Positions 1 to 64,000 of a stretch of DNA of 64,000 nt are shown piece after piece. Under the pieces are notes generated by a model that searched no databases, was not told the origin of the DNA, and saw nothing but the letters and a program-made list of their open reading frames with translations. Positions within the stretch are counted from its first letter, which is position 1, and every line of letters starts with the position of its first letter. The DNA comes from an uncultured virus (IMG/VR IMGVR_UViG_3300003962_000201) (lineage: Duplodnaviria > Heunggongvirae > Uroviricota > Caudoviricetes): IMG/VR virus record IMGVR_UViG_3300003962_000201, one strand, 5' to 3'. The translations under genes and the position numbers were made by a program.

Positions 1-537
1 AAGCAGGGGTCACGCCTCCCTAGAAGCTGGACCACTGGCCGCCAATCGAAAAGGCCCTTGACACCCCAGCCGTGGTTTGGTAAGCTCTATTCATGGTCGG
101 GGATGAAAGGGCTCCGGCCTGGATAGAAAAATAAACCGGGCAATTCCGGAAAGGCTGTAAGCGGCTTGCCGAAAGCTTATCGGGAACCTCGCGCAGGCTT
201 GACAGGGATTTACGGGCGGTTTTATAATAAATTTCCTGCTGGGCCGGAATGTATCTGCCCGGGGAGGAGGGGAGGGGTCCGCCCCGACCCGAACGCCCTC
301 CTGACGCGCGCACAAAATTTTTAAAACTTTTTCAACCCTTCCCAAACCCTTCCCAAAGCCTTTTTAATGGGTCAGGGAATACCTAAAAAAACATTTTTCA
401 AAAACCGAATTTCAAAAAAATGCGCGCAAAATTTTTTAAGAATTTTTCAGCACCCTTTCAAAACCTTGCCCTTGCGGGCGAAATCTTGTTGAAGGCCTTT
501 GGCCGGCCGCGTTTTTTTGAGAAAGATGCCAAAAGGT

Positions 538-759
538 TTAAACAGGTTGCGAAACCATTTTAAATTCCTTTATGCTATTCAACGAAAGCGCCGTGCCGGT
601 CAGGCCCCACGACCACGTCCAAACCCGCTCGGCGTAGCGGCCTATGCAAAAACCTTTTCTTCTATCATAAACGGAAGCATCTTTCAAAAAGACATCTTTC
701 CAAAAATGAATAATCAAAGTATCCAGTGAAAAAAGCGATAGAGTTTTCATTTTTTTCAT
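538..759 (-). CDS. Microprotein, C-terminal-helix family member (…LSLNSIKEFKMV-SQPV); paralogue of 764..991
   Basis: ATG at 759 (or 750). Shares FWK, RRxGFxIG, VWTW and FKMV with the neighbouring ORF. Confidence 0.7.
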   Translation of the reverse strand: MKKMKTLSLFSLDTLIIHFWKDVFLKDASVYDRRKGFCIGRYAERVWTWSWGLTGTALSLNSIKEFKMVSQPV

Positions 760-763
760 ATTT

Positions 764-9328: not shown

Positions 9329-9332
9329 TTTC

Positions 9333-36901: not shown

Positions 36902-36926
36902 TCTGGTGTATAATGCATTAATTTCG

Positions 36927-44481: not shown

Positions 44482-44702
44482 AATTTATTGTTCTTAAAGA
44501 AGTTCCCAAAGAACATCTTATTGAATTCTCGATTTTTAGTCGGATTAGAAAAGGAATCTATCGTGAAGACAATTATTTTAGAAATCTTATAAGTATTGAC
44601 CCGACCGATTTTTATAGTATTGATTATTTTCTCTTTATTACAGGCCGGGCCGCAAGAGCTTATGATTTACTTTCATTGATGAGGATTTTCAAATGCTTGT
44701 GA
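44472..44702 (+). CDS. Microprotein array member (MRLKF…DLLSLMRIFKCL)
   Basis: Motif present; starts inside the repeat. Confidence 0.78.
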   Translation: MRLKFIVLKEVPKEHLIEFSIFSRIRKGIYREDNYFRNLISIDPTDFYSIDYFLFITGRAARAYDLLSLMRIFKCL

Positions 44703-44929
44703 AATTTCTTGTAATAAAAAATTTAGAAAACATAAAAAACGGTTTAACTTTTTATTTTGAATTTTGTGTTTTTAAATCGTTTAATAAGCACACAAGTTTT
44801 GATTTTATGAGTTTAAGGCTTCGCGGAGGCCCTTTCTCTGAAATTGTTATATTTTCACCCGATCCAGTTACGCTCAGTTTTTTCAGCAAATGCGATTTAT
44901 CATTAATAAGGATTTACAAATGTTTATGA
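44693..44929 (+). CDS. Microprotein array member (MLVKF…CDLSLIRIYKCL)
   Basis: Motif present; starts inside the repeat. Confidence 0.78.
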   Translation: MLVKFLVIKNLENIKNGLTFYFEFCVFKSFNKHTSFDFMSLRLRGGPFSEIVIFSPDPVTLSFFSKCDLSLIRIYKCL

Positions 44930-46656: not shown

Positions 46657-46844
46657 AATACAAATTAGAATTAATTTTTAACAGCGGGGATAATAAGTGG
46701 TACTATGAAATAAAGCCAGGCGAGATTTGGATTGAGTCAAAAATAGACCATGATGGTTTGCTTGGACCTTATTACGACGCCCGGGAAGCGATTGGAAGCG
46801 TTGATAAAGATTTTAGAAAGTGGAAAGAAGGATGGTATAGATGA
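46653..46844 (+). CDS. Small hypothetical protein
   Basis: ATGA-coupled at both ends. Confidence 0.7.
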   Translation: MKYKLELIFNSGDNKWYYEIKPGEIWIESKIDHDGLLGPYYDAREAIGSVDKDFRKWKEGWYR

Positions 46845-47809
46845 CTAAACAAAAATTAGCAATAATTTCCGGTGTTTCCGGACAAGATGGATCGTACTTG
46901 TCAGAGCTTCTTTTACAAAAAGGGTACAAAGTTGTTGGATTAAAGAGAAGAACTTCTTTAATAAATACAGATAGGATAGACCATCTTTTAGATAATCCAA
47001 ACTTCTCTCTTGTTTATTGGGATGTTCATGATACGACTCGTTATTTTGCCCTTATCAAAGAATACCAGCCTGATGAAATTTATAATCTCGCCGCACAATC
47101 CCATGTAAAGGTTTCTTTTATTGTTCCGGAAGAAACATTCTTAAATGCCTCCACTTCCACCCTTCGCTGGCTAGAGGCTATCAAAACATTAAAGCCCGAT
47201 ACGAAGTTTTATCAGGCCTCGTCAAGCGAGCTATACGGGGATGAACCGTGTCCTCTTACTGGCTTTGATGAAAACTCAAAAATGTCTCCAGCAAGTCCTT
47301 ACGCAATTGGAAAACTTGCTGCGCATCATCTTGTCAGAAATTACCGAATTTCCTATGGGCTTTTTGCTTGCTCTGGTATTCTTTTCAATCATACCTCGCC
47401 ACGAAGAGGCGAAAACTTTGTTTGCCGAAAAATTGTTGATGGTGTCAAAGCCATTCGCGATGGAAAACAAAAAGAATTATTTTTAGGAAACCTTGACGCA
47501 GTTCGGGATTTTTCACATAGTCAAGATTGCGTTGAAATGATGTTTCTTATGATGCAGCAAGACAAGCCGGACGATTTTGTCATCGGGTCAGGTGAAACCA
47601 TAAGTATTCGTGATTTTTGCGCAACGGCATTTGATTTGGCTTCATTAAATTGGGAAGATTATGTTAGAATTGACCCGAAATTTTTTAGGCCACACGAGGT
47701 TCCGTTTTTGAAGGCAAATACACTAAAAGCCCAAAAACAACTTGGATGGAAGCCGAAATTTTCAATAGAAGAAATAATAAAGGATTTATACGAAGGAAAC
47801 TCAAAATGA
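46841..47809 (+). CDS. gmd: GDP-mannose 4,6-dehydratase
   Basis: GVSGQDGSYL; YNLAAQSHVKVSF; YQASSSELYG; GILFNH.SPRRGE.FV.RK. Confidence 0.95.
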   Translation: MTKQKLAIISGVSGQDGSYLSELLLQKGYKVVGLKRRTSLINTDRIDHLLDNPNFSLVYWDVHDTTRYFALIKEYQPDEIYNLAAQSHVKVSFIVPEETFLNASTSTLRWLEAIKTLKPDTKFYQASSSELYGDEPCPLTGFDENSKMSPASPYAIGKLAAHHLVRNYRISYGLFACSGILFNHTSPRRGENFVCRKIVDGVKAIRDGKQKELFLGNLDAVRDFSHSQDCVEMMFLMMQQDKPDDFVIGSGETISIRDFCATAFDLASLNWEDYVRIDPKFFRPHEVPFLKANTLKAQKQLGWKPKFSIEEIIKDLYEGNSK

Positions 47810-48006
47810 CCAATTTAAAACTCTCCGAAAACGCTAGAAAACAACTCTCGAAATGCCTTATGAAGGCCATGGTTGAACCTGGCACGACAACTCACGAAAT
47901 TTTAGGAAATCTTAACTTTTGGCTTGACGAAAATAACGACTTGGATTGCGACTCCGTTTCAATAACTTTCCCGGTGGTTCCGCAAACCGAGCCAGCCGAA
48001 GGGTAA
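47806..48006 (+). CDS. Small hypothetical protein
   Basis: ATGA overlap with gmd (MTNLKLSE…). Confidence 0.65.
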   Translation: MTNLKLSENARKQLSKCLMKAMVEPGTTTHEILGNLNFWLDENNDLDCDSVSITFPVVPQTEPAEG

Positions 48007-48007
48007 A

Positions 48008-48250
48008 ATGCCTTTTTATTCGTTTAAGTGCAACTCTTGCTCGAAGGAGTTCGAAATTTTTTTAAAAATGGGCCAAAAACCCGAAAAAACTCCTTGTTGT
48101 TCTTCTTTGGAATTTGAAAAAATTATAACAAAAGTTTCTCTTTCCGGCCTAACAACCGACGAAAAAAAACTTAATGCGATAAATGAAGAGATAAGAGAAA
48201 ATAGAGAAATCTTGGAAGAGATGAAAAAAGATTTAAAAAATAGGAGATAA
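48008..48250 (+). CDS. FmdB-family zinc-ribbon protein
   Basis: MPFYSFKCNSCSKEFE…PCCSS. Confidence 0.8.
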   Translation: MPFYSFKCNSCSKEFEIFLKMGQKPEKTPCCSSLEFEKIITKVSLSGLTTDEKKLNAINEEIRENREILEEMKKDLKNRR

Positions 48251-48252
48251 TT

Positions 48253-48621
48253 ATGATACTTATAACTCTATGTTTATTGCTTTCAATAAGTTTAAATGCG
48301 ATTCTCGGTTGGTATGCGCATCAAAGTGCAAAAAGAATTTCTTACATAAACGAAAATCTTTCATTTCTCTATGTTCTAATCGACTCGTTCTTGGAGCACA
48401 CCAAGACGGTTTACGAGTTGGAAACGATTTACGGCGACCAGGAGATGAAAGGTTTGGTTCAACACGCTCATGCTCTTCGAGAGCAGATCGGAGGTCTTCT
48501 TGAAACCTACGACCTCTCCCAAGAAAATCTCCAAGAAGAGCTTGAAAGAATCCGAATCTCACCCGATGACGATGAGGGTTCCTCCGAAACTCCGCCGGAA
48601 GCGCAACAAAGCCAATCCTAA
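48253..48621 (+). CDS. Membrane-anchored hypothetical protein
   Basis: N-terminal hydrophobic helix. Confidence 0.75.
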   Translation: MILITLCLLLSISLNAILGWYAHQSAKRISYINENLSFLYVLIDSFLEHTKTVYELETIYGDQEMKGLVQHAHALREQIGGLLETYDLSQENLQEELERIRISPDDDEGSSETPPEAQQSQS

Positions 48622-49279
48622 TAACATTTATTTTAATGCAACTCACGAAAAAGCAGTTGTTGATTATGCATCCTCAATTGATTTTAAAGAACGCGATAAG
48701 ATTTATACAACAATTTTAAAACCTGTTCTTCGCGAGATTATTGACAAAATTGTTTTCAAGTATAAATTCAACGCTCTTCCAAACATCGATGTCCTTAAAG
48801 ATGAATGCGAAGCTTGGATAGGTTCCGTTCTGGATAAATTTGATACATCCAAGGGGTTTAAGGCATTTTCCTATTTCAGCGTCATAACAAAAAACTGGTT
48901 CATTTTCAAAGTCAAGACAAACGCAAAGCAACTTAACCGAGAGTTGCCTATAGAAGAAACCATTATAAACAATAACGCCGATAAAATGTCGGTTTTTAAC
49001 CGATACGAAATTGAGCGGGAACAAAAAGAATTTATTAAAGGATTTTTTGAGTACATAAAATTTCACGGACATCCCGAACAATTTGACAGCGAAGAAAAGA
49101 AAGTCTATTACGCGATAGAATACTTGGTTGACAACATCGACTTGATTGATGATTTTAATAAGAAAAGAATTAATCTCTTTATTGATGAGTATACCAAACT
49201 TGAAAGTAAAAAGCGGGTCAAGGCATTAAAAAAGTTTAAGACATTTTACAACATTTATCGTAAAAAAGTTTATAACTAA
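48566..49279 (+). CDS. Phage late-transcription sigma factor (T4 gp55-like)
   Basis: YF…E.AVVDY…LDKFDTSKGFKAFSYFSVITKN resembles sigma region 2 of gp55-like proteins; sits directly upstream of the virion module. Confidence 0.7.
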   Translation: MTMRVPPKLRRKRNKANPNNIYFNATHEKAVVDYASSIDFKERDKIYTTILKPVLREIIDKIVFKYKFNALPNIDVLKDECEAWIGSVLDKFDTSKGFKAFSYFSVITKNWFIFKVKTNAKQLNRELPIEETIINNNADKMSVFNRYEIEREQKEFIKGFFEYIKFHGHPEQFDSEEKKVYYAIEYLVDNIDLIDDFNKKRINLFIDEYTKLESKKRVKALKKFKTFYNIYRKKVYN

Positions 49280-49288
49280 TTATTTTTA

Positions 49289-49582
49289 ATGGCTAAAAAA
49301 AAGGATAAAACTCTCGTCGAAGAGGCCATCGAAAACATTCGGACAGATAGAGCGTCGGCCTCGGACGTTCTGGAAAGGCTTATTCAAAGTGTTTCGAGTT
49401 CTTTGGATTTTCGCGATGTTGCGGTCTCTTGCACCAAGGCCCTCGAAACCTTGCAGAGAAGCAACGAGCAATTGGTTCGATTAGCGACAACAAAAACAAT
49501 TCAAGCGGAAGAAGAAGATTTTTCCCTCTCAAAAGAAGAAGAACAACGCCTTTTCGAAGAAATAAAAAAACCTATTAATTAA
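49289..49582 (+). CDS. Conserved large-phage hypothetical protein
   Basis: EAIENIRTDR…LETLQRSNEQLVRL. Confidence 0.8.
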   Translation: MAKKKDKTLVEEAIENIRTDRASASDVLERLIQSVSSSLDFRDVAVSCTKALETLQRSNEQLVRLATTKTIQAEEEDFSLSKEEEQRLFEEIKKPIN

Positions 49583-49587
49583 TTCGT

Positions 49588-50703
49588 ATGACCGACCAGC
49601 GAAGAATAAATCCGGCGTTCGGCGAACTTAATCCGGTCGAACCGAAGCAGACGAACGAGTTTTATTCCCCAAATGTTTCCACGGCCGTGGGAGCTTTGGG
49701 AACACTTGTCCGGTCTGCTTACGAACAAGATGCGGTTTCTGGGTTGGGCTTTCCCTTGAAAGGAATTGTTCTCCGTGTTAATCCGGAAACAAAAAGAAGC
49801 AATTGTTCTTCTTGGGTTGCTAATTTTAATTTATTAAAAGATGCGCCAACACTTAAAAGCGTTGTTGTTAGAATTCCCGAGTTGCATTCAGCAATTCCTC
49901 TTCCGGCTGTTTATGGGTTATTCCCTGGTTCTCACCAACAAATCATCGATTTGCACCCGTCTTTTTTATCAATAAATAAAGATGTCTCCAATCAACCGGT
50001 TGCGGAAGGAGATGTTGTGTATGTTGATTTCGGCAATAGAGCGAACTTGACGGACCCGATTTATCTTGGGCCGGTTTATCAAAAACCAAATCCGGGTGTG
50101 GTTGGAATTAAACCTATTCCTAACCAAAGCCTTTTTAATGACCCGGGAGAACTATTATTTACTCCGGTCGCACCGGTCATTCCAGACGAAGAGTTAATAA
50201 CTCCGTCAGCAACCATTCAGGAGGTTGCTTATTCCAAAGGCAACGATTTAGGTTTGGTTAATTTGATCGAATTGCCGGTCAAGTATCGGGCGCCTGGAGC
50301 AAATAAAGTTTTGGTTGTTGAAGAACAATACCCTAATTTGATTGAAATGCTTGACGCTGCGCACGCGGAAGGAGTAAACATAAAAGTTTCGTCAGCATTC
50401 CGGACAAATGCCGAACAAGAAATTCTTTATGACCTTTACAAAGCCAATAAGGGAAACTTGGCCGCTCGACCAGGGTATTCCGAGCACCAGAATGGAGTTG
50501 CTTACGATTTCTATCCCGCGACAGACTCAGATAGTCTTGAATGGGAGTGGCTGTCTTCCAATGCTCATCGCTACGGATTTTGGAATGCTGGTCGAGAATT
50601 CTCTAAACAGCGTGAAAACTGGCACTGGGAATTTGTTAGTGTTGATAGTTTTATTGCGCGAAGAGAAGGAAATTTAAGTTTAGCGGAAAAAAAGAGAGGT
50701 TAA
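49588..50703 (+). CDS. Baseplate-hub-like protein with C-terminal M15B (VanY-like) peptidase
   Basis: VRIPELH…GDVVYVDF OB-fold-like region; SAFRT..EQ…ARPGYSEHQNGVAYD…ENWHWEF. Confidence 0.8.
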   Translation: MTDQRRINPAFGELNPVEPKQTNEFYSPNVSTAVGALGTLVRSAYEQDAVSGLGFPLKGIVLRVNPETKRSNCSSWVANFNLLKDAPTLKSVVVRIPELHSAIPLPAVYGLFPGSHQQIIDLHPSFLSINKDVSNQPVAEGDVVYVDFGNRANLTDPIYLGPVYQKPNPGVVGIKPIPNQSLFNDPGELLFTPVAPVIPDEELITPSATIQEVAYSKGNDLGLVNLIELPVKYRAPGANKVLVVEEQYPNLIEMLDAAHAEGVNIKVSSAFRTNAEQEILYDLYKANKGNLAARPGYSEHQNGVAYDFYPATDSDSLEWEWLSSNAHRYGFWNAGREFSKQRENWHWEFVSVDSFIARREGNLSLAEKKRG

Positions 50704-50706
50704 TTT

Positions 50707-51627
50707 ATGACGAAAGAATTTGATAATAGCAACCTCGAGCCAACCTCCAAATCTCTTATCGACAACCTTCCAGGAGACCTTAAAACGCGCGCAAAAGGCC
50801 TTGCCGGAGCCCCTCTCGCCGAAGCTGTTCCGTCGTTTATAAAGGCTTCTGGAGATAAGGTTATCGAAGGCTCCAACAACGCCTTCATCGTCCTAACCCG
50901 CGACCGGCCAGCCTCTCGCGTTTCCGGCTACGGAGGCCTCGGGCACGCTGGCGCAGGAACTATCGATTTGGTTGTTGGTCGCCTTGGAAGTAACGCAAAA
51001 TCTTTTATCGACGGAAAACGAGTATGGGCCGACCCTAATTTTTCAACAGACGCCGCCCGAATTTACATTTCGCAGAAGACCGATGTTGATGATAATTTTA
51101 AACTCCCAAAAGGCACGGTCGGGAACACCAAAGGTCATTCAGCAATCGCTTTAAAAGCCGACGGAATTCGTCTTATCGGCCGGGAAGGAATTAAATTAAT
51201 AACCAAAAATGATGCGAAAAACTCACAAGGAGAAAGCATTTCATACATTCGCGGAATAGATTTAATTGCCGGCGGGGATGACGCAAATCTCCAACCAATC
51301 GCCTTGGGCGGGAACACCAAGGACGCGATTAAGGATTTGTACGGTAAAATTGAAGATTTGGCGGGCATCGTGGATGGGTTGCTTGACGAACAAATGAAGT
51401 TAAACCAAGCACTTACAACACATTTTCACATTTCGCCATTTTTTGGTTTGCCGACCAGCCCATCTCCAGAAGTCTTATCTGTCGGCCCGACCGTGATGCT
51501 CAACCATCTTGCCCAAACAAAAAGAAGCATTTTTTCTTTGAAATACAACATCGTCAATTCAAAGTTTAAATACACAAACCCAACATCAAAGAAATACATT
51601 TCCAGCCGATACAATAACACAAACTAA
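50707..51627 (+). CDS. Probable baseplate spike-associated protein
   Basis: DAARIYISQKTDVD; KADGIRLIGRE; HFH motif; gene context. Confidence 0.65.
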   Translation: MTKEFDNSNLEPTSKSLIDNLPGDLKTRAKGLAGAPLAEAVPSFIKASGDKVIEGSNNAFIVLTRDRPASRVSGYGGLGHAGAGTIDLVVGRLGSNAKSFIDGKRVWADPNFSTDAARIYISQKTDVDDNFKLPKGTVGNTKGHSAIALKADGIRLIGREGIKLITKNDAKNSQGESISYIRGIDLIAGGDDANLQPIALGGNTKDAIKDLYGKIEDLAGIVDGLLDEQMKLNQALTTHFHISPFFGLPTSPSPEVLSVGPTVMLNHLAQTKRSIFSLKYNIVNSKFKYTNPTSKKYISSRYNNTN

Positions 51628-51649
51628 AGCAAAATGTATTTATTCATAA

Positions 51650-54600
51650 ATGGAATGTCGTTCAACCCTTAACAAACCTTTACAGCCTAACTCAATTCCT
51701 GTAACCAAAGCAATTCCTCTTGATTGGGTAACTCTTCGCCTTGACCAACCCTATTTCGACTCTGCATCGGGGAATTATTTTATTTCTGTTCCTCTTATCA
51801 AAATTCCTCAAAATTCTCTTGATGAAGAAGAAATTCGCACCGCATCCATCACAATTGGGTCTTTGACCTTGCTCCAAATTCTTTCCAAGGTCAATACCGA
51901 AGAGACACGCCGCCAGGCTTCGGCAAATGCGTTTATGGCGGACATCTTCATCTCTTTACGCCCTAACCTGGTCTGCCCCGAAGCGACCGATAAGGTCCTT
52001 GTGGGCATTCCCAAGGCTGACCTCGACGCCATTCCCGAAGACCCGAACGCTCCTCTTCCAATTGCGAGCGATGAAATCATAACAACAACGGATAGACTTG
52101 TCGAGGATTTTAGAAGCCTTGCTGAAGTGATCGAAGAAATGGCGCAAACTTCTGGAGAAGAAATAAAACAACAATCAGGAATAGACATTTCCAAAGATGC
52201 CGACATCATTCAAAAAATTCCAAAAGTTATTGAGACCTTTTTGTTAAAAAATGGAATTATTTTTAATCAAGACCGACAAGATTTAATCGTCATCGGGCTT
52301 GATGCGAATAACATTCCTTTGTATTTCCTTTATGATGATGGTTCGGCCTCTTTAAATCTTCGCGGGTCTTTCGGTGAGTTGCGAGACATTTTTATTCCAA
52401 GAGTTTCAACTTATCTTAAAAACCTTGATTTTATTATTCGCCAAGGAAATGCCGGGCTTGGACTTTCCTCTCTTCTCGCTGAGCTCCCTGATTTATCTTT
52501 TCCAAACATTTCTGTTGATTTTCCTTTTGCGAATTTTAATCTCTCCGTTAAAGGAATAAGAGCAACATACGATACAGGATTGCCGAAAGATGAAGATGGA
52601 AAAGATAAAGAAGATGAAGAATTGGAGGAATTATCAAATAACAAAGATTTCTCCAAAAAAGTTCAAGAGCGTTTGGAGAATGTTTTTGACCAACGATTTG
52701 CTTTTTTGGAAAACATAAAAACTCTTGATGATGTCTATTCTCTTTTATTAAACAGGACGGACATAACTTGTTTCGCTTCATTCGCTCTTGAATGTCTTTC
52801 CAACAACCTTCCAAAGGACTTTATTAAATGCGAACTTATTAAATCATTTTTACGGAACCTTTCTGGAAAAGATTTTATAAGGGTTCTTAAAGAACTTAAT
52901 TTAACGATAGACATTTTGCCAGAGTTCGCCCAAAGTGTTCGGGAAGATTTGCTAATCTGTTATGAAGAACTTGACGAGAAAAACAAGAAAGAACTTCTAG
53001 ACCAAATCAATTTCAGGTTAAAGACAAACTTTATTGTTGCAGGGCAAATAAGAGAAATTTTATCAACCGAAGATGTTGTTAATTCTTTTGGTTTTCGCGG
53101 AAAGCTTATTCTTGAAGAGAAGTTTGTTTCTCAAAAAGATAAAGTTATTGATGATTTAATAAATCTCGTTGGTTGTGAAGCGTTCGCAAATCTTAACAAT
53201 TCTTCTCTTGTTGGGGCAACTTTGGCGAACTCGACCATCAACGCTTTGGAGCAGGGAAATCTTTGCGATTTAAATTTTAAGCTTCCTAAAATACCTTTTA
53301 TTGATTTTGATTTGCAATTGCCGACTTGGGATGCTTTAAAAATTATCTTTGATGAACTTGCTTTATCAATTTTGGAAGGAATAACGACAGCGTTTTTAGA
53401 ATTGGTTAAATCTCTTTTTGAACAATTGATAAGGGTTTGCGATGAAGATGGAATACCCGGAATAATTGATAATCTCGGGAATGGAGATTTTCTTAATTCC
53501 AACATCTTTAAGAATGCCTTGGCGAATTCTATTGGAATTGACCCGTCAGTTTTAACAGACCCGGAACAATTTCAGCAAGTTCTTGAAGGCGCTTTAACAA
53601 GATTAAATGTTGTTCCAACAATAACAGGAGATTTTGGAAACATCGGGGCAATTGCCGGGTCCATAACTCGCTTAATGGATGATTTGGGAGCAATCTTAAC
53701 GCCGACAGAATTGGCGAAATTGCTGAATGGAAATTCAACCGACGAAGTTAAACAAATTGTTGATTGTATCATAACTTCCAAGTATCCTGATTTGAATGTT
53801 GAAACAGACCCAGGAACCGATAAAAAAGAAAAAATAACAAATCTTTTTGGAACTCTCGGTGGTCTTATCAATAAACAGAAATTATTTGACGACATTATCT
53901 TGATAAATGATTTTGGGGATGATGATTTCTGCGACATCCAAAGCGATTTGGCGAAGAGAAAACTTCTTTCGGCCAAAGGATTAACTCCATCTCAAATTGA
54001 TAATGAAATCAATAAATTAAAAGCAAGAAAATTAGCGAGAATTTCTCAATTAGCAAACTTGATTGAAGACCCGAACTTCGCTCAGAAGTTTGTTCCGGGC
54101 ATCTGCTCCAATTCCTCTTTCTCTTTTAATCCTCCGCAAATGAATTTGTTTATGGAAAAAGCATTAAGAGGAATGTTTGATGGAACAAAAATGACTTTTG
54201 ACAGAGAAATAAACTCTTTTGTTCCATCATTAAAAGAAACTGTTTATGAAACAAAAACAGTTAGAAAGTTTATTGATGTTTCTTTTGAAAAAAATGATGG
54301 AAATGTTGTTTCCTCCAAAATTATTAATCCAGAATGGTCGCGACTTGTCGCTCAAGGGTTCCCTGATGAAATAAGAGATGAAAACGGACAGGTTCTTGAA
54401 GACGAGACCAATGATGTTGAGCGAGAGACGCAGACCTCTGTTCCGGCCGGCGTTGGAACCATCGCCGGAGGGCTGAAAAATGCCTTCAAGAACCTTTCAA
54501 GCGACAACATTTTGTTAAATGTTGATAATGGTTTGGTTTTCACCGTCCCAAATTCAAACGACCCTTATAGACAGACAACAAATAATTTACAATTTTTAAA

Positions 54601-56974
54601 TCCAACAATAAGCAAGATAAAAGAAATTGCTGGTTCAATCGCTAATTTTGGCGGAAATCAAAATCAACAGGCAGAACTTAATGCGATTTTGGATTTGGTT
54701 CAACCAAAGCAATTTTCAATAAGTTATTTTGTGAATAATTCTTGCGAAGTTATTGATAGCTCTTCTTTAACCATCTCTTATAAGACACAAAATTCAAATG
54801 AAATTGAAATTTTTAAGACAAATTCTTTTTTTGATGTCCCAGAAGAAGTCAAATCTTTTATTGAAGCAAGTGGATTAACCAATAACATTTCAAATAGGCC
54901 TCCGCAAGAAACATTTTTACAAAAATACTTTGCTAAAATTATAAATGGCGTTTCCGGGAACCAATTAACTTCTCAAATTAATGATTTGATGGAGCGCGAA
55001 TTATCAAATAATAAATTTTTTGCTCTTTTTAATAACATTTTGGTAAATTTTGGAAAAAGAATAACAAATTCTCCACTTTTTATTGAAAAAATTATAAAAA
55101 ATCTTAATTTTACAATCGCAGATAAAAATGGCTGTGAAGTTTCTTTGCTTGACCTTTCAAGAGCCAAGAATTCTTTGAGAGATACAATAAAAAATTCTTG
55201 TGGAGAAGACTTAAGCCCAAATCAAAACCCTTTCCAGGCGCGTGTGGGTGCGCTGGAACTTGCCGGCCTGGAAGCAACCATCAAAACTCTTTTCAGGCTT
55301 TATGCGATTGAGTTTGTTGTGCAAAATGTTTTTATTTTTACTCAATTTAACATAAAAACGATTGAGGAAATTGATAATTCTTTGGTTGAATTTGCTATGG
55401 AAGAGGCGAAGCGAGACATAAAAGAGTTTGGAAATGATTATTTTGATTTGGTTGAGAAGTTTTCAATACAATTTGCGAAAAATCAAGATGAAACAATCAA
55501 TAATTTTTCTCAAGCATTTAAACTTTTTTATACAAAAGAATTGATTGATGTTTTTGAGAAAATTAATTTTATTATCGGTGCTGATAATAATTCGTTCAAT
55601 CTTTCAAGAACTTTTATTGAGAAAACAATACCTTTTGATGATGTTTCTTTTGCTGATGAAGACATAGACTTTGGAATTGCGGTTAAACAGCAACGATTTT
55701 TTACAATAAAAGAAGTCAGCCAAATAAACACCATAAATCAAACAAAGATTAGCAATTTTGATAATACGGATAGTTTGATTGTTGATGTTGAAAATGGTTT
55801 CTTCATTTTAGAGAAGTATGCGAAAGTTAAATACAAAGAGACATTCCCGGAAGGATTTAGAAGAAGCACGATAAAAAATGTTTGTCGTATTGACGAGTTG
55901 CAGAATTATCTGTCCAATTTTAGCAGAGGTCAATTATCAAATGGAATTTCCTATTCTCCTGGCGACATTTTTGAAGAAATAAAAATGGGATTAAGAATTT
56001 CTTATGTCTTTAATCTAAATGATAATCAATTTAGAAATCCAGGAACAAGTCCAAAAGGGGCCTTGGCGGAATTAAAGACAAGTTTAGCAAATCAAGCAAA
56101 GATCATAAACATAAATGAAAGAGCGTTTTTTACAAAAGAAAGTTTTGCGGTGGATACAAGAATAGGTTTTGATTTAGACCGCGGCGGAGCAAATGTTAGA
56201 GAAAGAGACATTTATTTAATTCCCGTCTGCTCTAACGAGATAGAGGTTTCTCCAGTTGCTGCGACCACCGCCGGAAATGAGTATTTTCAGGTCTGGGAAC
56301 AATCAAAAGAAAATCTTATTGAAGGACTATCAAGAAAAGATGAGTTTAAATTTATGTTTAATTTTATCACCCCTCTTCAAAAAATACCATCCCTTTTAGG
56401 TATTTTTTCTTATCTTTATTTATCAAACTTGTTGGAAATTGATATTTTATTTGATGGAACAAAATCTTCTTTGAAGAAATTATTTCAAACATTTTTAAAC
56501 TCTGGAAAGCTGGATTATGAAGATGCCGACTCGCTGGAATACGGCGGAAGTCCGGGAACTTATGCAAACATGGAGGCAGGGAATTTTGATGACCTTTCGC
56601 CAGACATTAAAGCAATCATTATCGGGTTTATCTTAAAGACCCCAATAAGGATTTTGAAAGGCCTTGTTGAAATTTCCGACCCGAACATTTTTATCGCTTC
56701 CAAGATTGCGCTCGCCGCCCGGCTCGCGTGCAAGCCTTTGCCTGTGGCCGTTCCTAGCCTCGCTCTTTTGCCCTCAAATGTATTTCCGCCGCCGCCGCTA
56801 GGGCCTGGAATTGGACCGCCTATAAGCCCTCTGGGGTTTGCTTATCTCGCGATTGATGCTTTTGATAGTATCCCAATACCCGGATGTGAAGAACCCGAAG
56901 AAAGCGATAATTATGATAAACCTTCACAAGATGAAGTTAGGAGAAAGTTTTGCGATGAAAACGGGGGAAGTTAA
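51650..56974 (+). CDS. Large (1774 aa) virion/baseplate-region protein of unknown function
   Basis: Long ORF inside the structural module. Confidence 0.8.
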   Translation: MECRSTLNKPLQPNSIPVTKAIPLDWVTLRLDQPYFDSASGNYFISVPLIKIPQNSLDEEEIRTASITIGSLTLLQILSKVNTEETRRQASANAFMADIFISLRPNLVCPEATDKVLVGIPKADLDAIPEDPNAPLPIASDEIITTTDRLVEDFRSLAEVIEEMAQTSGEEIKQQSGIDISKDADIIQKIPKVIETFLLKNGIIFNQDRQDLIVIGLDANNIPLYFLYDDGSASLNLRGSFGELRDIFIPRVSTYLKNLDFIIRQGNAGLGLSSLLAELPDLSFPNISVDFPFANFNLSVKGIRATYDTGLPKDEDGKDKEDEELEELSNNKDFSKKVQERLENVFDQRFAFLENIKTLDDVYSLLLNRTDITCFASFALECLSNNLPKDFIKCELIKSFLRNLSGKDFIRVLKELNLTIDILPEFAQSVREDLLICYEELDEKNKKELLDQINFRLKTNFIVAGQIREILSTEDVVNSFGFRGKLILEEKFVSQKDKVIDDLINLVGCEAFANLNNSSLVGATLANSTINALEQGNLCDLNFKLPKIPFIDFDLQLPTWDALKIIFDELALSILEGITTAFLELVKSLFEQLIRVCDEDGIPGIIDNLGNGDFLNSNIFKNALANSIGIDPSVLTDPEQFQQVLEGALTRLNVVPTITGDFGNIGAIAGSITRLMDDLGAILTPTELAKLLNGNSTDEVKQIVDCIITSKYPDLNVETDPGTDKKEKITNLFGTLGGLINKQKLFDDIILINDFGDDDFCDIQSDLAKRKLLSAKGLTPSQIDNEINKLKARKLARISQLANLIEDPNFAQKFVPGICSNSSFSFNPPQMNLFMEKALRGMFDGTKMTFDREINSFVPSLKETVYETKTVRKFIDVSFEKNDGNVVSSKIINPEWSRLVAQGFPDEIRDENGQVLEDETNDVERETQTSVPAGVGTIAGGLKNAFKNLSSDNILLNVDNGLVFTVPNSNDPYRQTTNNLQFLNPTISKIKEIAGSIANFGGNQNQQAELNAILDLVQPKQFSISYFVNNSCEVIDSSSLTISYKTQNSNEIEIFKTNSFFDVPEEVKSFIEASGLTNNISNRPPQETFLQKYFAKIINGVSGNQLTSQINDLMERELSNNKFFALFNNILVNFGKRITNSPLFIEKIIKNLNFTIADKNGCEVSLLDLSRAKNSLRDTIKNSCGEDLSPNQNPFQARVGALELAGLEATIKTLFRLYAIEFVVQNVFIFTQFNIKTIEEIDNSLVEFAMEEAKRDIKEFGNDYFDLVEKFSIQFAKNQDETINNFSQAFKLFYTKELIDVFEKINFIIGADNNSFNLSRTFIEKTIPFDDVSFADEDIDFGIAVKQQRFFTIKEVSQINTINQTKISNFDNTDSLIVDVENGFFILEKYAKVKYKETFPEGFRRSTIKNVCRIDELQNYLSNFSRGQLSNGISYSPGDIFEEIKMGLRISYVFNLNDNQFRNPGTSPKGALAELKTSLANQAKIININERAFFTKESFAVDTRIGFDLDRGGANVRERDIYLIPVCSNEIEVSPVAATTAGNEYFQVWEQSKENLIEGLSRKDEFKFMFNFITPLQKIPSLLGIFSYLYLSNLLEIDILFDGTKSSLKKLFQTFLNSGKLDYEDADSLEYGGSPGTYANMEAGNFDDLSPDIKAIIIGFILKTPIRILKGLVEISDPNIFIASKIALAARLACKPLPVAVPSLALLPSNVFPPPPLGPGIGPPISPLGFAYLAIDAFDSIPIPGCEEPEESDNYDKPSQDEVRRKFCDENGGS

Positions 56975-57355
56975 ATGTCGGGAATAGCTCCAAAATTGCC
57001 TTTAAGATTTTCCACCGATGGGGGTTTCGCCCAGACGCAGACGCTCAAAGAAACAATTCAGCAAAACTTTAAAAATCTTCTTTTAACCTCTCAGGGCGAG
57101 CGGGTGATGGACATCAATTTCGGCGTGGGCCTTCGCGCCCTTCTCTTCGAAAACGACAGCGTTGCTACTCGAAATAATGTTGTTGCTAAAATAAAACAAC
57201 AAGCGGGAATTTACATGCCGTTTCTCAACATAGCGGCTGTCAAATTCTTTACAAATTTAGAAAACTCCTTGCTGGAAGCGAACGAAATAAACATTCAGGT
57301 TTTTTATTTCATCATTCCTCTTGAAAGCAACGATTTTATTTCAATAAATTTGTAA
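56975..57355 (+). CDS. Baseplate wedge protein, T4 gp25-like
   Basis: QNFKNLLLTSQGERVMDINFGVGL..LLFE. Confidence 0.92.
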   Translation: MSGIAPKLPLRFSTDGGFAQTQTLKETIQQNFKNLLLTSQGERVMDINFGVGLRALLFENDSVATRNNVVAKIKQQAGIYMPFLNIAAVKFFTNLENSLLEANEINIQVFYFIIPLESNDFISINL

Positions 57356-57374
57356 ATTCTAATTAATAGTTAAA

Positions 57375-59180
57375 ATGTCTAACAATAAGCGTTCTCCCAC
57401 CATAATACGATACACTTCACGAGATTTTGAAAGCATTAAGCAAGATTTGGTGGAATACGCCAAGAGAAACTATCCAGACTCCTACAAAGACAATAGCGAA
57501 GCCGGGTTCGGTGCGATGATGCTTGATGCTGTTTCAATAATCGGCGACCAATTATCTTATTACCTTGATTATTCCGTTAATGAAAGCACTATGGAGACCG
57601 CCGCGGAATACAATAACATCTTGAAATTAGCCAAGTTTTTGGGATACAAATACAAAGGTGTTCCAACTTCACAAGGAATTCAAACATTTTACTTGATAAT
57701 TCCTGCGAATACAATAGGAAATGCTCCGGACAGAAATTATTTACCAATCTTAAAAAAAGGAAGTGAAATTGCTTCTCTAAACGGGAATGGTTTTATTGTT
57801 AATGAAGATGTTGATTTTTCTAACATAAATAATGAAATTGTTGTTGCGAGAGTTGATGATAATACAGGAACTCCAACAGCTTACGCTGTTAAATCATTCG
57901 GCCAAATAATTTCTGGAAAACTAATTGAAGAATTGGTTGAAGTTGGTGAATTTAAAAAATTCTTAAAATTAGAGTTAGGGTCGGCAAACATTGCGGAGAT
58001 TATTTCAATTCACGATGAAGAAGGAAACGAATACTTTGAGGTTGAAAATTTAACACAAGATACGATTTATAGACCAATCGCAAATCGCGATGCGACAACG
58101 AACATTTATTCTAAATCAATTTTAAGACCATTTTTGGTTCCAAGAAGATTTGTTGTTGAACGAGAATTAAATAAGACATTTATTCAATTTGGCTTTGGCG
58201 GAGAACAAAACTCCTCTGTTTCTCAAATAATAGACCCATCAAGAGCAATTTTAAAAGAATACGGAAAAGATTACATAAGCAATACCTCTTTTGACCCAGG
58301 TAAGCTCCTTGAAACAGATGCTATGGGAATTGCCCCAGCAAATACAACATTAAGAGTTGTCTATCGGGTGAACACGCAAAGTCAAGTCAACGCTTCTGTT
58401 AATTCCGTAACACAAATAACAAATCCTATTTTTGAGTTTTCTAACATCTCTTCTTTGGACGCAAATCAAGTTGCTTCTGTTATTAATTCCCTGGAAACAA
58501 ATAATGACGAAACAATCATAGGGGATACAACACCAATAACCACAGATGAATTAAAAATTCAAGCGTACGGAACATTTAGTTCCCAAAATAGAGCGGTTAC
58601 TCTCCAAGATTACAAAACCTATGTTTATTCTATGCCGGGCGAGTTCGGTTCAATTAAAAGAGTAAATGTTATTCAGGATAAAAACTCCTTCAAGAGAAAT
58701 CTTAATTTTTATGTTATAAGCGAAGATAGTTCCGGAAAACTTGTAACAACAAATGATACAATTAAGCAAAACTTAAAAATTTGGCTTGAAAATGGAAAAA
58801 TGATAAATGATACGATAGACATTCTTGATGCTGTCATCGTCAATTATGGAATTGAGTACCAAGTTATTGGAGATTTAAACATAAACAAATTTAACATTTT
58901 ATCATCCTGCAACCAAGCCATTCGGGATTATCTTCAAATCCTTCCTGAAATTGGTGAAAACTTTTTCATAAGCGAGATTTTTAAAATCTTGAATGATGTT
59001 GATGGAGTTGTTGATGTTGTCGGTGTTAAAATTGTTCCAAAGACCGGTGGTGTTTATTCTTCTGCCACATTTGATTTTGAGAAAGAAACGGTTTCTAACG
59101 GAAGATTTGTTAAAGTTCCCAAGAACGTCGTGGTTGAGTGCAAATACCCGAAAAATGACATTAAGGGTTCTGTAAGATAA
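57375..59180 (+). CDS. Baseplate wedge protein, T4 gp6/baseplate-J-like
   Basis: YTSRDFESIKQDL; LAKFLGYK; QFGFG; QNRAVTLQDY. Confidence 0.92.
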   Translation: MSNNKRSPTIIRYTSRDFESIKQDLVEYAKRNYPDSYKDNSEAGFGAMMLDAVSIIGDQLSYYLDYSVNESTMETAAEYNNILKLAKFLGYKYKGVPTSQGIQTFYLIIPANTIGNAPDRNYLPILKKGSEIASLNGNGFIVNEDVDFSNINNEIVVARVDDNTGTPTAYAVKSFGQIISGKLIEELVEVGEFKKFLKLELGSANIAEIISIHDEEGNEYFEVENLTQDTIYRPIANRDATTNIYSKSILRPFLVPRRFVVERELNKTFIQFGFGGEQNSSVSQIIDPSRAILKEYGKDYISNTSFDPGKLLETDAMGIAPANTTLRVVYRVNTQSQVNASVNSVTQITNPIFEFSNISSLDANQVASVINSLETNNDETIIGDTTPITTDELKIQAYGTFSSQNRAVTLQDYKTYVYSMPGEFGSIKRVNVIQDKNSFKRNLNFYVISEDSSGKLVTTNDTIKQNLKIWLENGKMINDTIDILDAVIVNYGIEYQVIGDLNINKFNILSSCNQAIRDYLQILPEIGENFFISEIFKILNDVDGVVDVVGVKIVPKTGGVYSSATFDFEKETVSNGRFVKVPKNVVVECKYPKNDIKGSVR

Positions 59181-59209
59181 TTTGTTAAAGTTCATAATTA
59201 CATTAACAA

Positions 59210-60649
59210 ATGACGATTTTTAGATTATCAGCCTCAAAAGATAATTCAATAACAAACGCTTATTCTTATAATTTAACAACCCGAATGACCGGAGCAAATA
59301 ACGGTGCCGCGGATGTTAATGAAGTTTTTAGCATTTTCGGGCAAGCATCGTCATCTTCACAGGAGATTTCACGGGCTCTTTACCAATTTCCTATTGATAC
59401 ATTCTCAACCCGCCGATCTCTTGGTCTTCTTCCTGTTTCTGGTTCTGTTTCGTTTTTCTTGAAACTCTCCAACGCGAGACACGGAGAAACTTTACCAACT
59501 CAATTTACCTTAGTTGTTAATCCTTTATCTTCCTCTTGGGATGAAGGCGGAGGTCTTGATTTAGAAAATGGAAAAGACCTCTCTCCTGTTGGTCAATTTG
59601 GCTCAAACTGGATTTATCGCTCTTCTGGTTCTTTATGGACCTCTCAAGGAGGAGATTTCTTAACTTCCTCGGTTTATTCGCAATACTTTGAAAATGGTGA
59701 TGAAAACCTGTCCATCGACATAACACCTTTGGTTGAAGAGTGGATTTCGGGAACAACTCCTAATAACGGCTTGATTGTCCGCCTTTCAGGAACACAAGAG
59801 AGCGGCTCAAATCAATCATTTTATACCAAGCGTTTCTTTTCGCGAGGCTCGGAATTTTTCTATGAAAGACCTTGGATAGAGGCGAGATACAACGACAACA
59901 TCTATGATAATAGAAATAATTTCGCAGCCTCTTCAACGCTCGCAACAGCGCAAGAAAATTTGAATGTTCTTTATTTTTACAATTATGTCCGTGGAGCGTT
60001 GCGAAACATTCCGGCAGTCGGGACAAGTTCTGTTTATGTCTCTTTCTGGACTTCCGCGTCAGCGGGAACACAACTTTTAACAGCGCCAACAACTCCAATA
60101 ACGGGCGGGTGGCTTTCAACTGGAATTTACACAGCTTCGGTTGCTTTGGATACAACCTCTTCGGTTGTTTATGATAGATGGTTTTATTCTTCAACCTCCG
60201 GTGAAGTTTATTTTCATACTGGAACAATTTATCCTGTTTCAATAAAAGAAAATCTCCCAGATACTGAATTTATTATAAACATTAAAAATTTGAAAAAAGT
60301 CTATAATACAACCGAAAAATCTCGCTTGAAATTATTTGTTCGTCAAAAAAATTGGAGACCGACAATCTATTACAAAGCAACCGAAACAGCAAAGAATTTG
60401 ATTTTATCAAGTTCTTATTACAAGATTTTCCGTGCTGTTGATGGTTTTGAGGTCATACCTTACGGAACAGGCTCAAATGAACATACAAGATTGTCTTTTA
60501 ATGGAGATGGTAATTATTTTGACTTGGATTTCAATTTATTTGAGCCGGGATACATGTATTCTATTAAAATTCTTGTTAAAAACAGAGATAATGAATACTT
60601 GGAGCAAAAAGAAACATTTAATTTCAGGGTAGAAAATAATGTCAATTAA
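59210..60649 (+). CDS. Virion protein with DNRLRE-like domain
   Basis: SRALYQF…W.EG.G…W…GGDF…IDITPLVEEWISG…NNGLIVRL…F.SR. Confidence 0.7.
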   Translation: MTIFRLSASKDNSITNAYSYNLTTRMTGANNGAADVNEVFSIFGQASSSSQEISRALYQFPIDTFSTRRSLGLLPVSGSVSFFLKLSNARHGETLPTQFTLVVNPLSSSWDEGGGLDLENGKDLSPVGQFGSNWIYRSSGSLWTSQGGDFLTSSVYSQYFENGDENLSIDITPLVEEWISGTTPNNGLIVRLSGTQESGSNQSFYTKRFFSRGSEFFYERPWIEARYNDNIYDNRNNFAASSTLATAQENLNVLYFYNYVRGALRNIPAVGTSSVYVSFWTSASAGTQLLTAPTTPITGGWLSTGIYTASVALDTTSSVVYDRWFYSSTSGEVYFHTGTIYPVSIKENLPDTEFIINIKNLKKVYNTTEKSRLKLFVRQKNWRPTIYYKATETAKNLILSSSYYKIFRAVDGFEVIPYGTGSNEHTRLSFNGDGNYFDLDFNLFEPGYMYSIKILVKNRDNEYLEQKETFNFRVENNVN

Positions 60650-63600
60650 GAACCTGTTCAACAAAAACGACATTCTTCAAATTCTTCCTGCGACAACCGA
60701 AGAAGAAATTTCTCGCGAAATTGAAAGCGAAGGATACATAAGTTCCTTTATTGAAGAACAAAATAAGTTTCTCCCAAGAGTAGACCTATCAAATCCGGCC
60801 AATTTTGCTCGTTGGGGTTCTGCGGAGCAATACTATCTCGACAGTATCGAGTACATCGCTGAAACTTATCCTTATGATGGATCTTTAAAAGAAAAAGTAA
60901 ATTGGTCTTTAAGTTCTTCTTATCTTGATTTGTACCTCTTTGAAAATGAATACCCAAGAGTAAATGGTTATGTTAATCTTGGATTAAACTATGGAACGCA
61001 AGTTTCGTCAAGCTCCAATTATTCTCTTGTTGATAATTTATCCTACATTTTCTTAAAAGGCGGCCCAAATTCCGCCTCGGCCGGAATGGAGGGAAAACCT
61101 CTTGCGGAAACCTTTAATTTATCAAATTATTATAGCACCGCCTCAAATAGAGAAAATAATCTTGAAATAGACCCGAATGCCGGAATAACAATTGAATTTT
61201 GGATGAATAAAGTTTCAGCCTCGGTCGGTTCTGGGAAACAGGTTATTTTTGATTTGTGGAATTCTCGTTCTTATGCCGACACAAATTACGGAAGAATTCG
61301 TCTTGAAATTAGACCACAAATTACCGGAAGCCAAAATCAATTCTTTCTCGAAATTCGTTCCGGAAGTTCCGGCCTTTCAGCTCAACGAGCAGATACGACA
61401 ATTCCAATCGGCAACAACCTTTTAATCACCGGAAGCGATTGGAAACAGTATTCTTTGACCGTAAAAAATTCCGGAAGCCAAATGGTCGCGGAACTTTGGA
61501 CTTCTGGCGTTCTTAATGATACAATCATAACAGGGTCTTCAATCGGGGCCATAACCGGCTCTATGATTGCGACCATAGGTTCTCTCATAACATCTGTTTC
61601 GGGCGCCAACGGCGGATTAGGGTGGGGCAAACTCTCTGCTTCTCTTGATGAATTTAGATTTTGGAAAGTTAAACGAAACGCCGAGCAGATTGGTCGTTAT
61701 TGGTTTACCCAAGTCGGCGGTGGAACAAATACCGATTTAGCAAATACTAATTTAGGAATTTATTACAAATTTAACGAAGGTGTTTGGAATAGCTCCTCAA
61801 TTGATTACGCTGACGCGAAAATTCTTGACTATTCCGGTCGCATCTCTAATGGAAATCTTGTCGGGTATTCTCTTGGTATGCGTTCAACATCTTCCGCTAT
61901 GGTTCTTGCTGGTGCAACCGAAAGAGAATTCCAAGACCCAATAATTTATTTATCTCACCCAAGGGTTCAAGAATTTCTTTCGGCAAAGCAAGAAATAGGA
62001 TTTAACCACGATGTTTCAGGGTCATCAAATCTTTATTTTATGTTCCCTGCTTGGATTAGAGAAGAAGACGAGAAAGACAACGCTTTTGTTCTTAAAAAGT
62101 TTTCTCAAATTATCGGCAAATCTTTTGATGACCTCCATCTCCAAATTGAGAGTTTCTCAAAGATAAAGCACCCGGATTATACAGAAACAACCGAACGGCC
62201 TTACAATTTTACAAGCAGACTTGTCAATTCAACAGGATTGTTTGTTCCTGAACTTTTTACGCAAGCGGAGGCTCTTGAGGCTCTTGCGAACCGAAGTGAA
62301 ATTGAAGAGTTTGAGAATAAACTTTACGAAATTAAAAGCAGAATTTATGAAAACATTTATAATAATTTGTCTTTCATAAACAAATCAAAAGGAACAGAAA
62401 AATCTTTTAGAAATTTGTTTCACGCATTTGGAGTTGATGATGATTTATTGAAAGTTAATCTCTATGTTGATGGAGAAACTTACAAATTTGAAAATAATTT
62501 AAAATTTGGCGTTGCCCGTAAAAAATTTGCCGATTTCAACAATCCCGATAGATTTGATGCGACAATTTATCAATTTACATCAAGCCAAACCAATAGTCGT
62601 TCATTTATCTCAAATCTTTCTGGAACAAGATTTAACGGAGAGACATACGAAATTGAGTGCCTCTTTCCAAAGAAATTTGAAAGAGACAGCGAACTTTACT
62701 TTGAGACAACCTTTTTGTCTTCTTCCATCTTTGGAGGACACACGGCAAATACAGGAACAACCCAAAACAATTTGGGTTGGAACTCTCCCGACATTTTCAA
62801 TTTCCAAGTCTACTCTGTTCGCGAAAGCCAAGAGAGTAAAAATGTTTATTTCCAACTAACTGGAACTTCCGGAGGGTCTGTTCCAAATCTAACTTCTTCT
62901 GTTTTCAAAGATGTTTATGATAATTCCAAGTGGAATTTGTTTGTTAGAATTAAACCAAATGGGTATCCTTACGCTTCAGCGACTTCTGGCTCAATTTCAA
63001 CTTACACAATAGAATTTATTGGAAAAAATTATGTTCTTGATGTTCTCGTTAATTCTTTCGCGGTTTCCTCAACAATTCCTTCATCATTTTTGAGCGGCGC
63101 TCGAAGAATGTATGCCGGCGCTCATAGACAAAATTTCACAGGCACCGTTATTGATAGAACAGATGTTAAAATTTCTAATCTTCGGTATTGGGTCTCCGCT
63201 TTGGAAGATGAAGTTCTTGATTTGCACGCAAAAGATGCTTTTAATTATGGAACAATAAACCCTATTCAAAACGCTTATTTGAGCGACAGAAACCTTTTTG
63301 GAAACGACATTCAGCAAATTCCATACGGACAAACTCTTGCTTTGTACTGGGATTTTTCAAGCGTTTCTTCTTCCGGACCATCAAGCGACGGAAACCCAAC
63401 AACTTATGATGCGACCTTTGAGGTTGCAGATTTATCTTCTGGTTCGGCGGAGTTAAGACAGTCTTTACCAGCAATTAGAGATGCTGTCAATTATTTTTAT
63501 CCAGGTATCGGTGGATTTTATCCTCCAAACGATACAAACGCAATTAATCAGGAATACCTCCAAAATGCTGAATTAATGTTGCCGGAGGTTCAAAACTCTT

Positions 63601-64000
63601 CCAACCTTGTATCAATCTTAAACCAAGATGATGAAGTTTTTACAAGAGAAAGCAAACCTATAAAACATTTTTTCTCCGTTGAGAAGAGTTTTAACTCAAT
63701 CATTTCAAAAGAAATGTTGAAAATGTTTGGAACAATTCAGGCTTTTAATAATTTGATCGGCGAACCTGTTAATCGTTATAGACAAAATTATAAAATGCTT
63801 GAAAAAATGAGAAGCATTTATTTTAGCACGATTGAAAACAAACCGGATTTTGATAGGTTCTTGGAATACTTTAAATGGATTGATAGTTCAATTTCCACGA
63901 TTGTCTATCAATTAATTCCGGCGACCGCAATTGCTTCTCAAAAAATTCGAAATGTTGTTGAAAGCCACATTTTAGAGAGAAATAAGTATTGGACCAAGTT
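60639..64000 (+). CDS. Very large virion protein with LamG-like domains, 3'-partial (absent from ORF track)
   Basis: ATG 60639 MSIKNLF…FARWGSAEQYY…YPYDGS…TIEFWM…LDEFRFWK…YYKFNEG; no stop seen before the window end. Confidence 0.85.
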   Translation, partial: MSIKNLFNKNDILQILPATTEEEISREIESEGYISSFIEEQNKFLPRVDLSNPANFARWGSAEQYYLDSIEYIAETYPYDGSLKEKVNWSLSSSYLDLYLFENEYPRVNGYVNLGLNYGTQVSSSSNYSLVDNLSYIFLKGGPNSASAGMEGKPLAETFNLSNYYSTASNRENNLEIDPNAGITIEFWMNKVSASVGSGKQVIFDLWNSRSYADTNYGRIRLEIRPQITGSQNQFFLEIRSGSSGLSAQRADTTIPIGNNLLITGSDWKQYSLTVKNSGSQMVAELWTSGVLNDTIITGSSIGAITGSMIATIGSLITSVSGANGGLGWGKLSASLDEFRFWKVKRNAEQIGRYWFTQVGGGTNTDLANTNLGIYYKFNEGVWNSSSIDYADAKILDYSGRISNGNLVGYSLGMRSTSSAMVLAGATEREFQDPIIYLSHPRVQEFLSAKQEIGFNHDVSGSSNLYFMFPAWIREEDEKDNAFVLKKFSQIIGKSFDDLHLQIESFSKIKHPDYTETTERPYNFTSRLVNSTGLFVPELFTQAEALEALANRSEIEEFENKLYEIKSRIYENIYNNLSFINKSKGTEKSFRNLFHAFGVDDDLLKVNLYVDGETYKFENNLKFGVARKKFADFNNPDRFDATIYQFTSSQTNSRSFISNLSGTRFNGETYEIECLFPKKFERDSELYFETTFLSSSIFGGHTANTGTTQNNLGWNSPDIFNFQVYSVRESQESKNVYFQLTGTSGGSVPNLTSSVFKDVYDNSKWNLFVRIKPNGYPYASATSGSISTYTIEFIGKNYVLDVLVNSFAVSSTIPSSFLSGARRMYAGAHRQNFTGTVIDRTDVKISNLRYWVSALEDEVLDLHAKDAFNYGTINPIQNAYLSDRNLFGNDIQQIPYGQTLALYWDFSSVSSSGPSSDGNPTTYDATFEVADLSSGSAELRQSLPAIRDAVNYFYPGIGGFYPPNDTNAINQEYLQNAELMLPEVQNSSNLVSILNQDDEVFTRESKPIKHFFSVEKSFNSIISKEMLKMFGTIQAFNNLIGEPVNRYRQNYKMLEKMRSIYFSTIENKPDFDRFLEYFKWIDSSISTIVYQLIPATAIASQKIRNVVESHILERNKYWTK

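Follow-up and report, generated by a model that had tools for sequence, protein, structure and literature searches.

Near-absence of the palindrome ATAT from an uncultured tailed phage and the case for a host restriction activity

In the part of the survey by Rusinov et al. (2018) drawn on here, avoidance of short recognition sites is mainly the mark of orthodox type II restriction systems on non-temperate double-stranded DNA (dsDNA) phages (PMC6286503). As of 2013, enzymes were available for 14 of the 16 4-bp palindromes, and the passage used from that account states that none is known for ATAT or TATA (PMC3724700). The methylase and motif tables of a methylome survey of 230 genomes contain GATC, TTAA, AATT, GANTC, and CTNAG, and the motif table holds N6-methyladenine (m6A) methylases for TTAA (nine rows) and AATT (two rows) (PMC4752239). 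ATAT goes unmentioned in the main text of the phage survey, its supplements lying outside the search (PMC6286503), and the one near match in the literature covered, taken from an excerpt of its source, is a longer Helicobacter motif, RTAY-N5-RTAY (PMC12679398). Here, we describe a stretch of 64,000 nucleotides (hereafter the window) from an uncultured wastewater virus of the Caudoviricetes (IMG/VR record IMGVR_UViG_3300003962_000201), from which ATAT is almost entirely missing, and weigh the agents that may be responsible.

ATAT is depleted through synonymous codon choice

ATAT occurs 29 times in the window. Composition alone predicts 674.7 copies (observed/expected, O/E, 0.04), a first-order Markov model 286.4 (O/E 0.10), and a second-order model, which includes TA-step and trinucleotide bias, 370.0 (O/E 0.08), a loss of about 92% of the expected copies. 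Under the second-order null, no tetranucleotide of the 256 ranks below ATAT, which again comes last when synonymous codons are permuted inside each of 98 open reading frames (ORFs). In this codon shuffle, 27 copies stand against 350.6 ± 14.4 expected over 200 shuffles (z = -22.5), and a repeat gave an expectation of 353.4 (z = -26.1); the shuffle scores many TA-containing non-palindromes low and is to be read jointly with the Markov null. ORFs cover 97% of the window, so that only 1,977 bases lie outside them. Given that the ratio for ATAT has a mean of 0.85 and a variance of 0.05 across 200 genomes, according to the one table used from that study (PMC3077040, Table 1), the value of 0.08 lies well beyond the usual range. 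The other AT-only palindromes are near expectation under the second-order model, with TATA at 194 of 245.8 (0.79), TTAA at 665 of 810.9 (0.82), and AATT at 1,051 of 1,030.9 (1.02). The first-pass annotation, made by eye, had described extreme avoidance of ATAT, a few dozen copies in the whole window, none in 60601-64000, and TATA, AATT, and TTAA as common; the formal counts agree throughout, the final site being at 56442, with none in 56446-64000. ATAT is therefore under-represented against composition-aware nulls, as the pattern of restriction-site avoidance requires.

The same annotation had named a longer known site or general trinucleotide bias as what might explain the deficit away, and neither does. 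A longer recognition site is excluded because every one of the 10 reverse-complement classes of NATATN is depleted (O/E 0 to 0.16), the mildest being AATATT with 9 copies of 57.3, and words one letter off ATAT stand at 0.82-1.25. Trinucleotide bias is ruled out as the cause, being absorbed by the second-order null. RTAY was also considered as the avoided site and rejected, with ATAC/GTAT at an O/E of 1.01, as were GATATC, CATATG, AATATT, ATATAT, and TATATA as separate avoided words, their deficit being accounted for by ATAT. Thus, the word avoided is a short palindrome with no longer site behind its loss, which fits restriction-site avoidance.

The loss can be followed into individual codon choices. 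Before a codon starting with AT, the codons for Tyr, His, Asn, and Asp end in T only 11 times and in C 194 times, whereas T-ending codons prevail in other contexts, for example, by 919 to 387 for Asn; the switch has a Fisher P value of 2e-6 to 2e-32 per amino acid. When the preceding codon ends in A, Tyr is written as TAT 11 times and as TAC 124 times, compared with TAT in 556 of 715 cases after C, G, or T. Similarly, ATA is chosen for Ile in 5 of 400 cases before T and in 281 of 546 before A. The depletion extends to each of the three codon phases, with 5, 11, and 11 copies of ATAT observed against 92, 126, and 136 expected under the codon shuffle. That codon pairs are bent to avoid ATAT, as had been noticed at first sight, is borne out by these counts. 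Because codon choice switches only where ATAT would form, and does so alike in three phases, the target of selection is the nucleotide word and not codon usage. A synonymous change suffices to remove any ATAT from a coding frame, and the loss, independent of reading frame and effected by synonymous choice, again matches restriction-site avoidance.

The depletion and the places where sites are left over are distributed as follows.

1..64000, no strand assigned: ATAT-depleted region, 29 sites against about 290-370 expected, across all ORF sizes and both gene orientations
46841..64000, plus strand: late or structural block, the most deeply purged part (VanY peptidase, a 1774-aa protein, gp25-like and baseplate wedge proteins)
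31494..32914, plus strand: cluster of five leftover ATAT (31494, 31581, 32302, 32478, 32911), in or between small ORFs
44673..44899, no strand assigned: 227-bp stretch with the leftover site 44849, absent from a contig of sequencing run X1 (joint 44672 to 44900, one contig, depth 26)

Depletion deepens with ORF size, from an O/E of 0.18 in ORFs of at most 110 codons (10 of 54.6) through 0.088 at 111-300 codons to 0.036 above 300 codons, and is similar in minus-strand genes (0.093) and plus-strand genes (0.069). The structural block retains a single site, at 56442, of 106.6 expected (O/E 0.009). The small ORFs hold 10 sites, compared with 3.9 under uniform depletion (P = 0.007), a gradient relative to the long ORFs and the structural block that is expected if new genes are still being cleaned, and the pattern fits newly gained small genes still undergoing clean-up. 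The earlier impression that leftover sites gather in accessory genes thus holds as far as this excess goes, but the small ORFs are themselves still more than 80% depleted. Its listed sites at 32302, 32478, 44092, 44849, 46544, 23160, and 36960 were all recovered; none exists at 32851, the closest being at 32911.

In the 31494..32914 cluster, two of the leftover ATAT share a TGTTTAAAATATTATGAAA junction, where a small ORF ends and the next ORF starts, each of these two neighboring junctions between tiny ORFs retaining the word. Tiny overlapping ORFs of 58-83 codons are found at 29534-33155 and 43693-44702, and the junctions that precede each following ATG resemble one another (...TTTAA(A/G)...). 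A functional signal at the leftover sites was considered and rejected: no motif recurs across the surroundings of the 29, and the majority of these sites fall within ORFs.

The loss is lineage specific and accompanied by symmetric loss of other words

ATAT is the most severely depleted of a larger set. The Markov null puts a palindrome at each of the seven lowest tetranucleotide ranks (ATAT, GATC, ACGT, CATG, TCGA, AGCT, and TGCA). In all, about 17 short palindromes besides ATAT are depleted. By codon shuffle, the O/E values of the 4-bp palindromes are 0.17 for GATC, 0.20 for ACGT, 0.36 for CTAG, 0.44 for AGCT, 0.45 for TCGA, 0.46 for GTAC, 0.55 for TGCA, and 0.62 for CATG, so that all eight palindromes mixing A/T with G/C are low; none of the four made of G and C only is depleted. 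A dozen gapped palindromes are likewise scarce, including CTNAG (0.14), GANTC (0.23), GTNNAC (0.23), TCNGA (0.28), CTNNAG (0.34), CANTG (0.35), TGNCA (0.46), and GTNAC (0.49), of which CANTG and TGNCA are not known to have an enzyme. Two hexamers are also depleted, GTTAAC (0 of 15.7) and CTTAAG (2 of 16.2). Neither AATT (1.12) nor TTAA (0.95) is depleted by this measure, and TATA (0.57), TANTA (0.60), and TANNTA (0.42) are somewhat low. Since so many other short palindromes have been removed along with ATAT, restriction systems with short sites appear to be numerous in the host or host population.

The gapped words also bear on the nature of the agent, as their two orientations can be told apart on the sense strand. 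Both are lost, with GAATC at 0.13 and GATTC at 0.26, CTAAG at 0.12 and CTTAG at 0.04, and GTCAC at 0.20 and GTGAC at 0.21. Because the two orientations are lost alike, double-stranded recognition is favored, which points to an agent that recognizes dsDNA and not RNA; this test covers the co-depleted gapped words only and not ATAT, its own reverse complement.

ATAT loss is seen in none of 20 comparison loci, whose O/E values range from 0.91 to 1.17. These comprise distant relatives by baseplate protein, from viral and metagenome contigs (L001, L002, and L006-L009, with L008 the same sequence as L001), three phage records (L003-L005), one contig of a metagenome bin (L010), and phages with a homolog of the zinc-finger nuclease or the GDP-mannose dehydratase of the window (L011-L020, with L013 and L014 on one contig). 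Relatives of similar AT content keep the word (O/E 0.96 at 32% GC and 0.96 at 34% GC), and other loci avoid words of their own, as do L018-L020 with GTAC (0 of 20-24) and L009 with GGCC (2 of 27). The loss thus marks this lineage rather than its phage family, and its absence from the 20 loci, several of which avoid words of their own, is the pattern expected of a host-specific restriction pressure.

Several lines were followed toward the host. A metagenome scan returned only relatives at 47-54% identity. A scan of genome contigs with a glycosyltransferase query returned one 4.2-kb contig of 35% GC with normal ATAT, in a bin labeled Maricaulis; it is probably phage DNA, judging by its composition, and a genome search through this locus gave no usable kinship. 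A query of the Atlas with the GDP-mannose dehydratase gave mixed phyla and pointed to no host. A loose Shine-Dalgarno word precedes only 26 of the 98 ORFs, a weak usage that would fit Bacteroidota or cyanobacteria, and the Bacteroidota -7 promoter word TANNTTTG is not enriched (79 copies, 81.6 expected).

Weighing the explanations

We put the probability that the phage is avoiding a restriction site, under an ATAT-specific host activity that reads double strands, at roughly 0.6, and infer a host restriction-modification enzyme with ATAT specificity as the agent. The narrower proposal that a wastewater host carries a restriction endonuclease and a matching methylase recognizing ATAT stands at about even odds. 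Under such a regime, a host activity would cut unmodified dsDNA at ATAT, each ATAT lost would raise the chance that an incoming genome escapes, and the lineage would have been selected site by site to drop the word. The purge would proceed via codon choice and leave proteins untouched, because every ATAT can be removed synonymously, and the same process would have stripped many other short palindromes.

It should be noted that a number of points weigh against this proposal. Neither ATAT nor TATA occurs as a whole word in six supplementary files of the methylome survey of 230 genomes (PMC4752239), and a full-text literature search, with REBASE outside its reach, gave no ATAT-specific enzyme or methylation motif; the view of the first-pass annotation that ATAT is no familiar type II target is upheld by these tables, together with the 2013 statement. 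The searches described above gave no host assignment. Family searches found no restriction or DNA-methylase gene in the 64-kb window, and the genome exceeds about 90 kb, as the X1 contig continues for about 28 kb beyond the window end, which makes a phage-borne system possible. The 29 remaining copies should still be hit by a 4-bp cutter unless escape at each site is likely, and the strand symmetry bears on the accompanying words and not on ATAT, whose two strands read the same. Finally, of the 40 differences listed among 299 between strains, one creates ATAT (46037 C>T), compared with 1.25 expected, a sample with too little power to reveal current selection.

A phage-borne agent would be an ATAT nuclease or restriction-modification pair, either outside the window or among its nucleases, used on host or rival DNA, with the own genome cleared of the word. 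The window encodes several uncharacterized nucleases.

8665-9177: HNH nuclease
21938-22783: PD-(D/E)XK exonuclease
22780..23469, plus strand: endonuclease VII-like ORF (phrog_1035, E 3e-14), with the leftover ATAT 23160
36906..37913, plus strand: nuclease candidate with three DUF4379 treble-clef zinc fingers (PF14311, E 7e-56; phrog_559 HNH endonuclease) and a weak PD-(D/E)XK-like C-terminus (PF10881 and PF18741 under cut-offs), with the leftover ATAT 36960

These nucleases, together with the part of the genome beyond the window, lend the idea some room. However, they match homing-type families, and homing-type nucleases read long sites. The window has no DNA methylase or recognizable restriction pair, its methylases being FkbM- and TylF-type sugar enzymes; the depleted palindromes, about 17, are too many for a single phage enzyme, and 29 self-targets are left. 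A phage-borne origin is therefore unlikely. Since called ORFs take up 97% of the window, selection on DNA overlaps with selection on RNA, and the transcripts could instead have been cleared of AUAU under a host or abortive-infection endoribonuclease that cuts there; RNase toxins that recognize short motifs exist, as do transcripts free of such motifs. Such an enzyme would have no reason to prefer palindromes, yet ATAT tops the list of depleted palindromes, and the gapped words that accompany it are lost in both sense-strand orientations. Genes on both strands are equally depleted, although a palindrome predicts this either way. RNA-level selection is accordingly improbable. Among the agents proposed in the first-pass annotation (a host defense, a phage nuclease, or an AUAU-specific RNase), those reading dsDNA are favored, and the RNase is disfavored by the loss of both orientations.

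It is also conceivable that no nuclease is involved and that the deficit stems from mutational bias, or from avoidance of AT-rich DNA-binding silencers or of false promoter-like signals. The low codon-shuffle values of TATA, TANTA, and TANNTA do show a general dislike of the TA step. Nevertheless, the second-order null covers TA and trinucleotide bias and still leaves ATAT at 0.08 and TATA at 0.79, the one-letter neighbors of ATAT are near expectation, a silencer or structural effect should strike TATA and longer AT runs equally, and relatives of similar AT content retain the word. Such an origin is very unlikely.

The phage and its place among known systems

The window has a G+C content of 36%, with ORFs mainly on the plus strand, and from family hits is part of a large contractile-tailed phage. 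Features beyond those given above include the following.

9256-9503: three tRNA genes
17755-21447, plus strand: PIN-PhoH protein of 1230 aa, with intein and LAGLIDADG insertions
23381-47809, plus strand: sugar-nucleotide/glycosyltransferase island with GT1, GT2, and GT47-like transferases
49588-50703: VanY peptidase domain
56975-59180: gp25-like and baseplate wedge proteins

In the PIN-PhoH protein, Intein_splicing matches residues 799-1153 and LAGLIDADG/Hom_end about 548-618; judging by PHROG matches to terminase and primase families that bear inteins, it may hold two inserts. Directly past the tRNA cluster, on the plus strand at 9516-14409, lie four tandem ORFs of about 400 aa that are paralogous (32-37% identity to the first, 67 invariant columns) and match no Pfam or PHROG family. 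The sugar island, whose target may be the host surface, the virion, or DNA, contains four paralogous NAD-dependent epimerases/dehydratases, including a GDP-mannose 4,6-dehydratase (E 2e-111), as well as a GHMP kinase, three FkbM/TylF-type methyltransferases, and a cytidylyltransferase-HAD fusion. Bases 1-200 reach 57% G+C, and a CCCTTCCCAAA-like short repeat stands just before the ORF at 367-492; the start of the window may be a feature of the genome or contig end.

No near DNA match was found in the phage collection. By the baseplate wedge protein, the closest cultured phages are Microcystis phage Mel-JY01 (32% identity) and Flavobacterium phage immuto (30%). Near-identical DNA for parts of 50001-60000 occurs, among the matches listed, in 20 runs from 12 studies, those labeled being bioreactor, wastewater, sludge, aquatic, and riverine metagenomes, which speaks to habitat only. 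Because such DNA recurs in runs of several studies, the sequence is not an artifact of a single assembly. Contigs of four runs compared with 44001-64000 represent strains about 1% different, with the 299 differences mentioned above. Stretches that are replaced or diverged lie at 51387-51504 (runs X1 and X9) and within the 1774-aa gene at 52614-55080 (one X1 contig).

If the proposed host activity is real, an ATAT cutter would fill one of two gaps among 4-bp palindromic cutters, and phage genomes could be read backwards to predict undiscovered defense specificities of uncultured hosts. This phage genome could then serve as a bait sequence for finding the ATAT enzyme. That about 17 palindromes were purged suggests that short-site restriction systems are unusually abundant in the host population. 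The window provides a concrete lead, open to testing, toward a restriction specificity that is still missing.

An ATAT enzyme would be of the same class as those for AATT and TTAA (4-bp, AT-only, and palindromic); these two words have listed methylases and are spared by this phage, whereas ATAT has no listing and is strongly avoided. Microcystis phage Mel-JY01 (PP395634.1), likewise a large tailed phage, has fully lost some 4-bp palindromes: in its locus L003 (143500-185353, 41.9 kb), GATC is at 0 of 83 and CTAG at 0 of 36, and GGCC is low at 17 of 36. It differs from the present phage in its avoided set and in keeping ATAT at expectation (671 of 697). With the non-temperate dsDNA phages surveyed by Rusinov et al. 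(2018, PMC6286503), as far as the part of that survey used here describes them, the present phage shares the scarcity of a short palindrome against compositional nulls, silent changes, lineage specificity, and the joint loss of other type II-like sites. In the cases of that survey, the avoided word matches a known enzyme and a known host; in this phage, it is ATAT, a word with no recorded enzyme. The mechanism belongs to a familiar class, and in the literature covered its target word is a new one.

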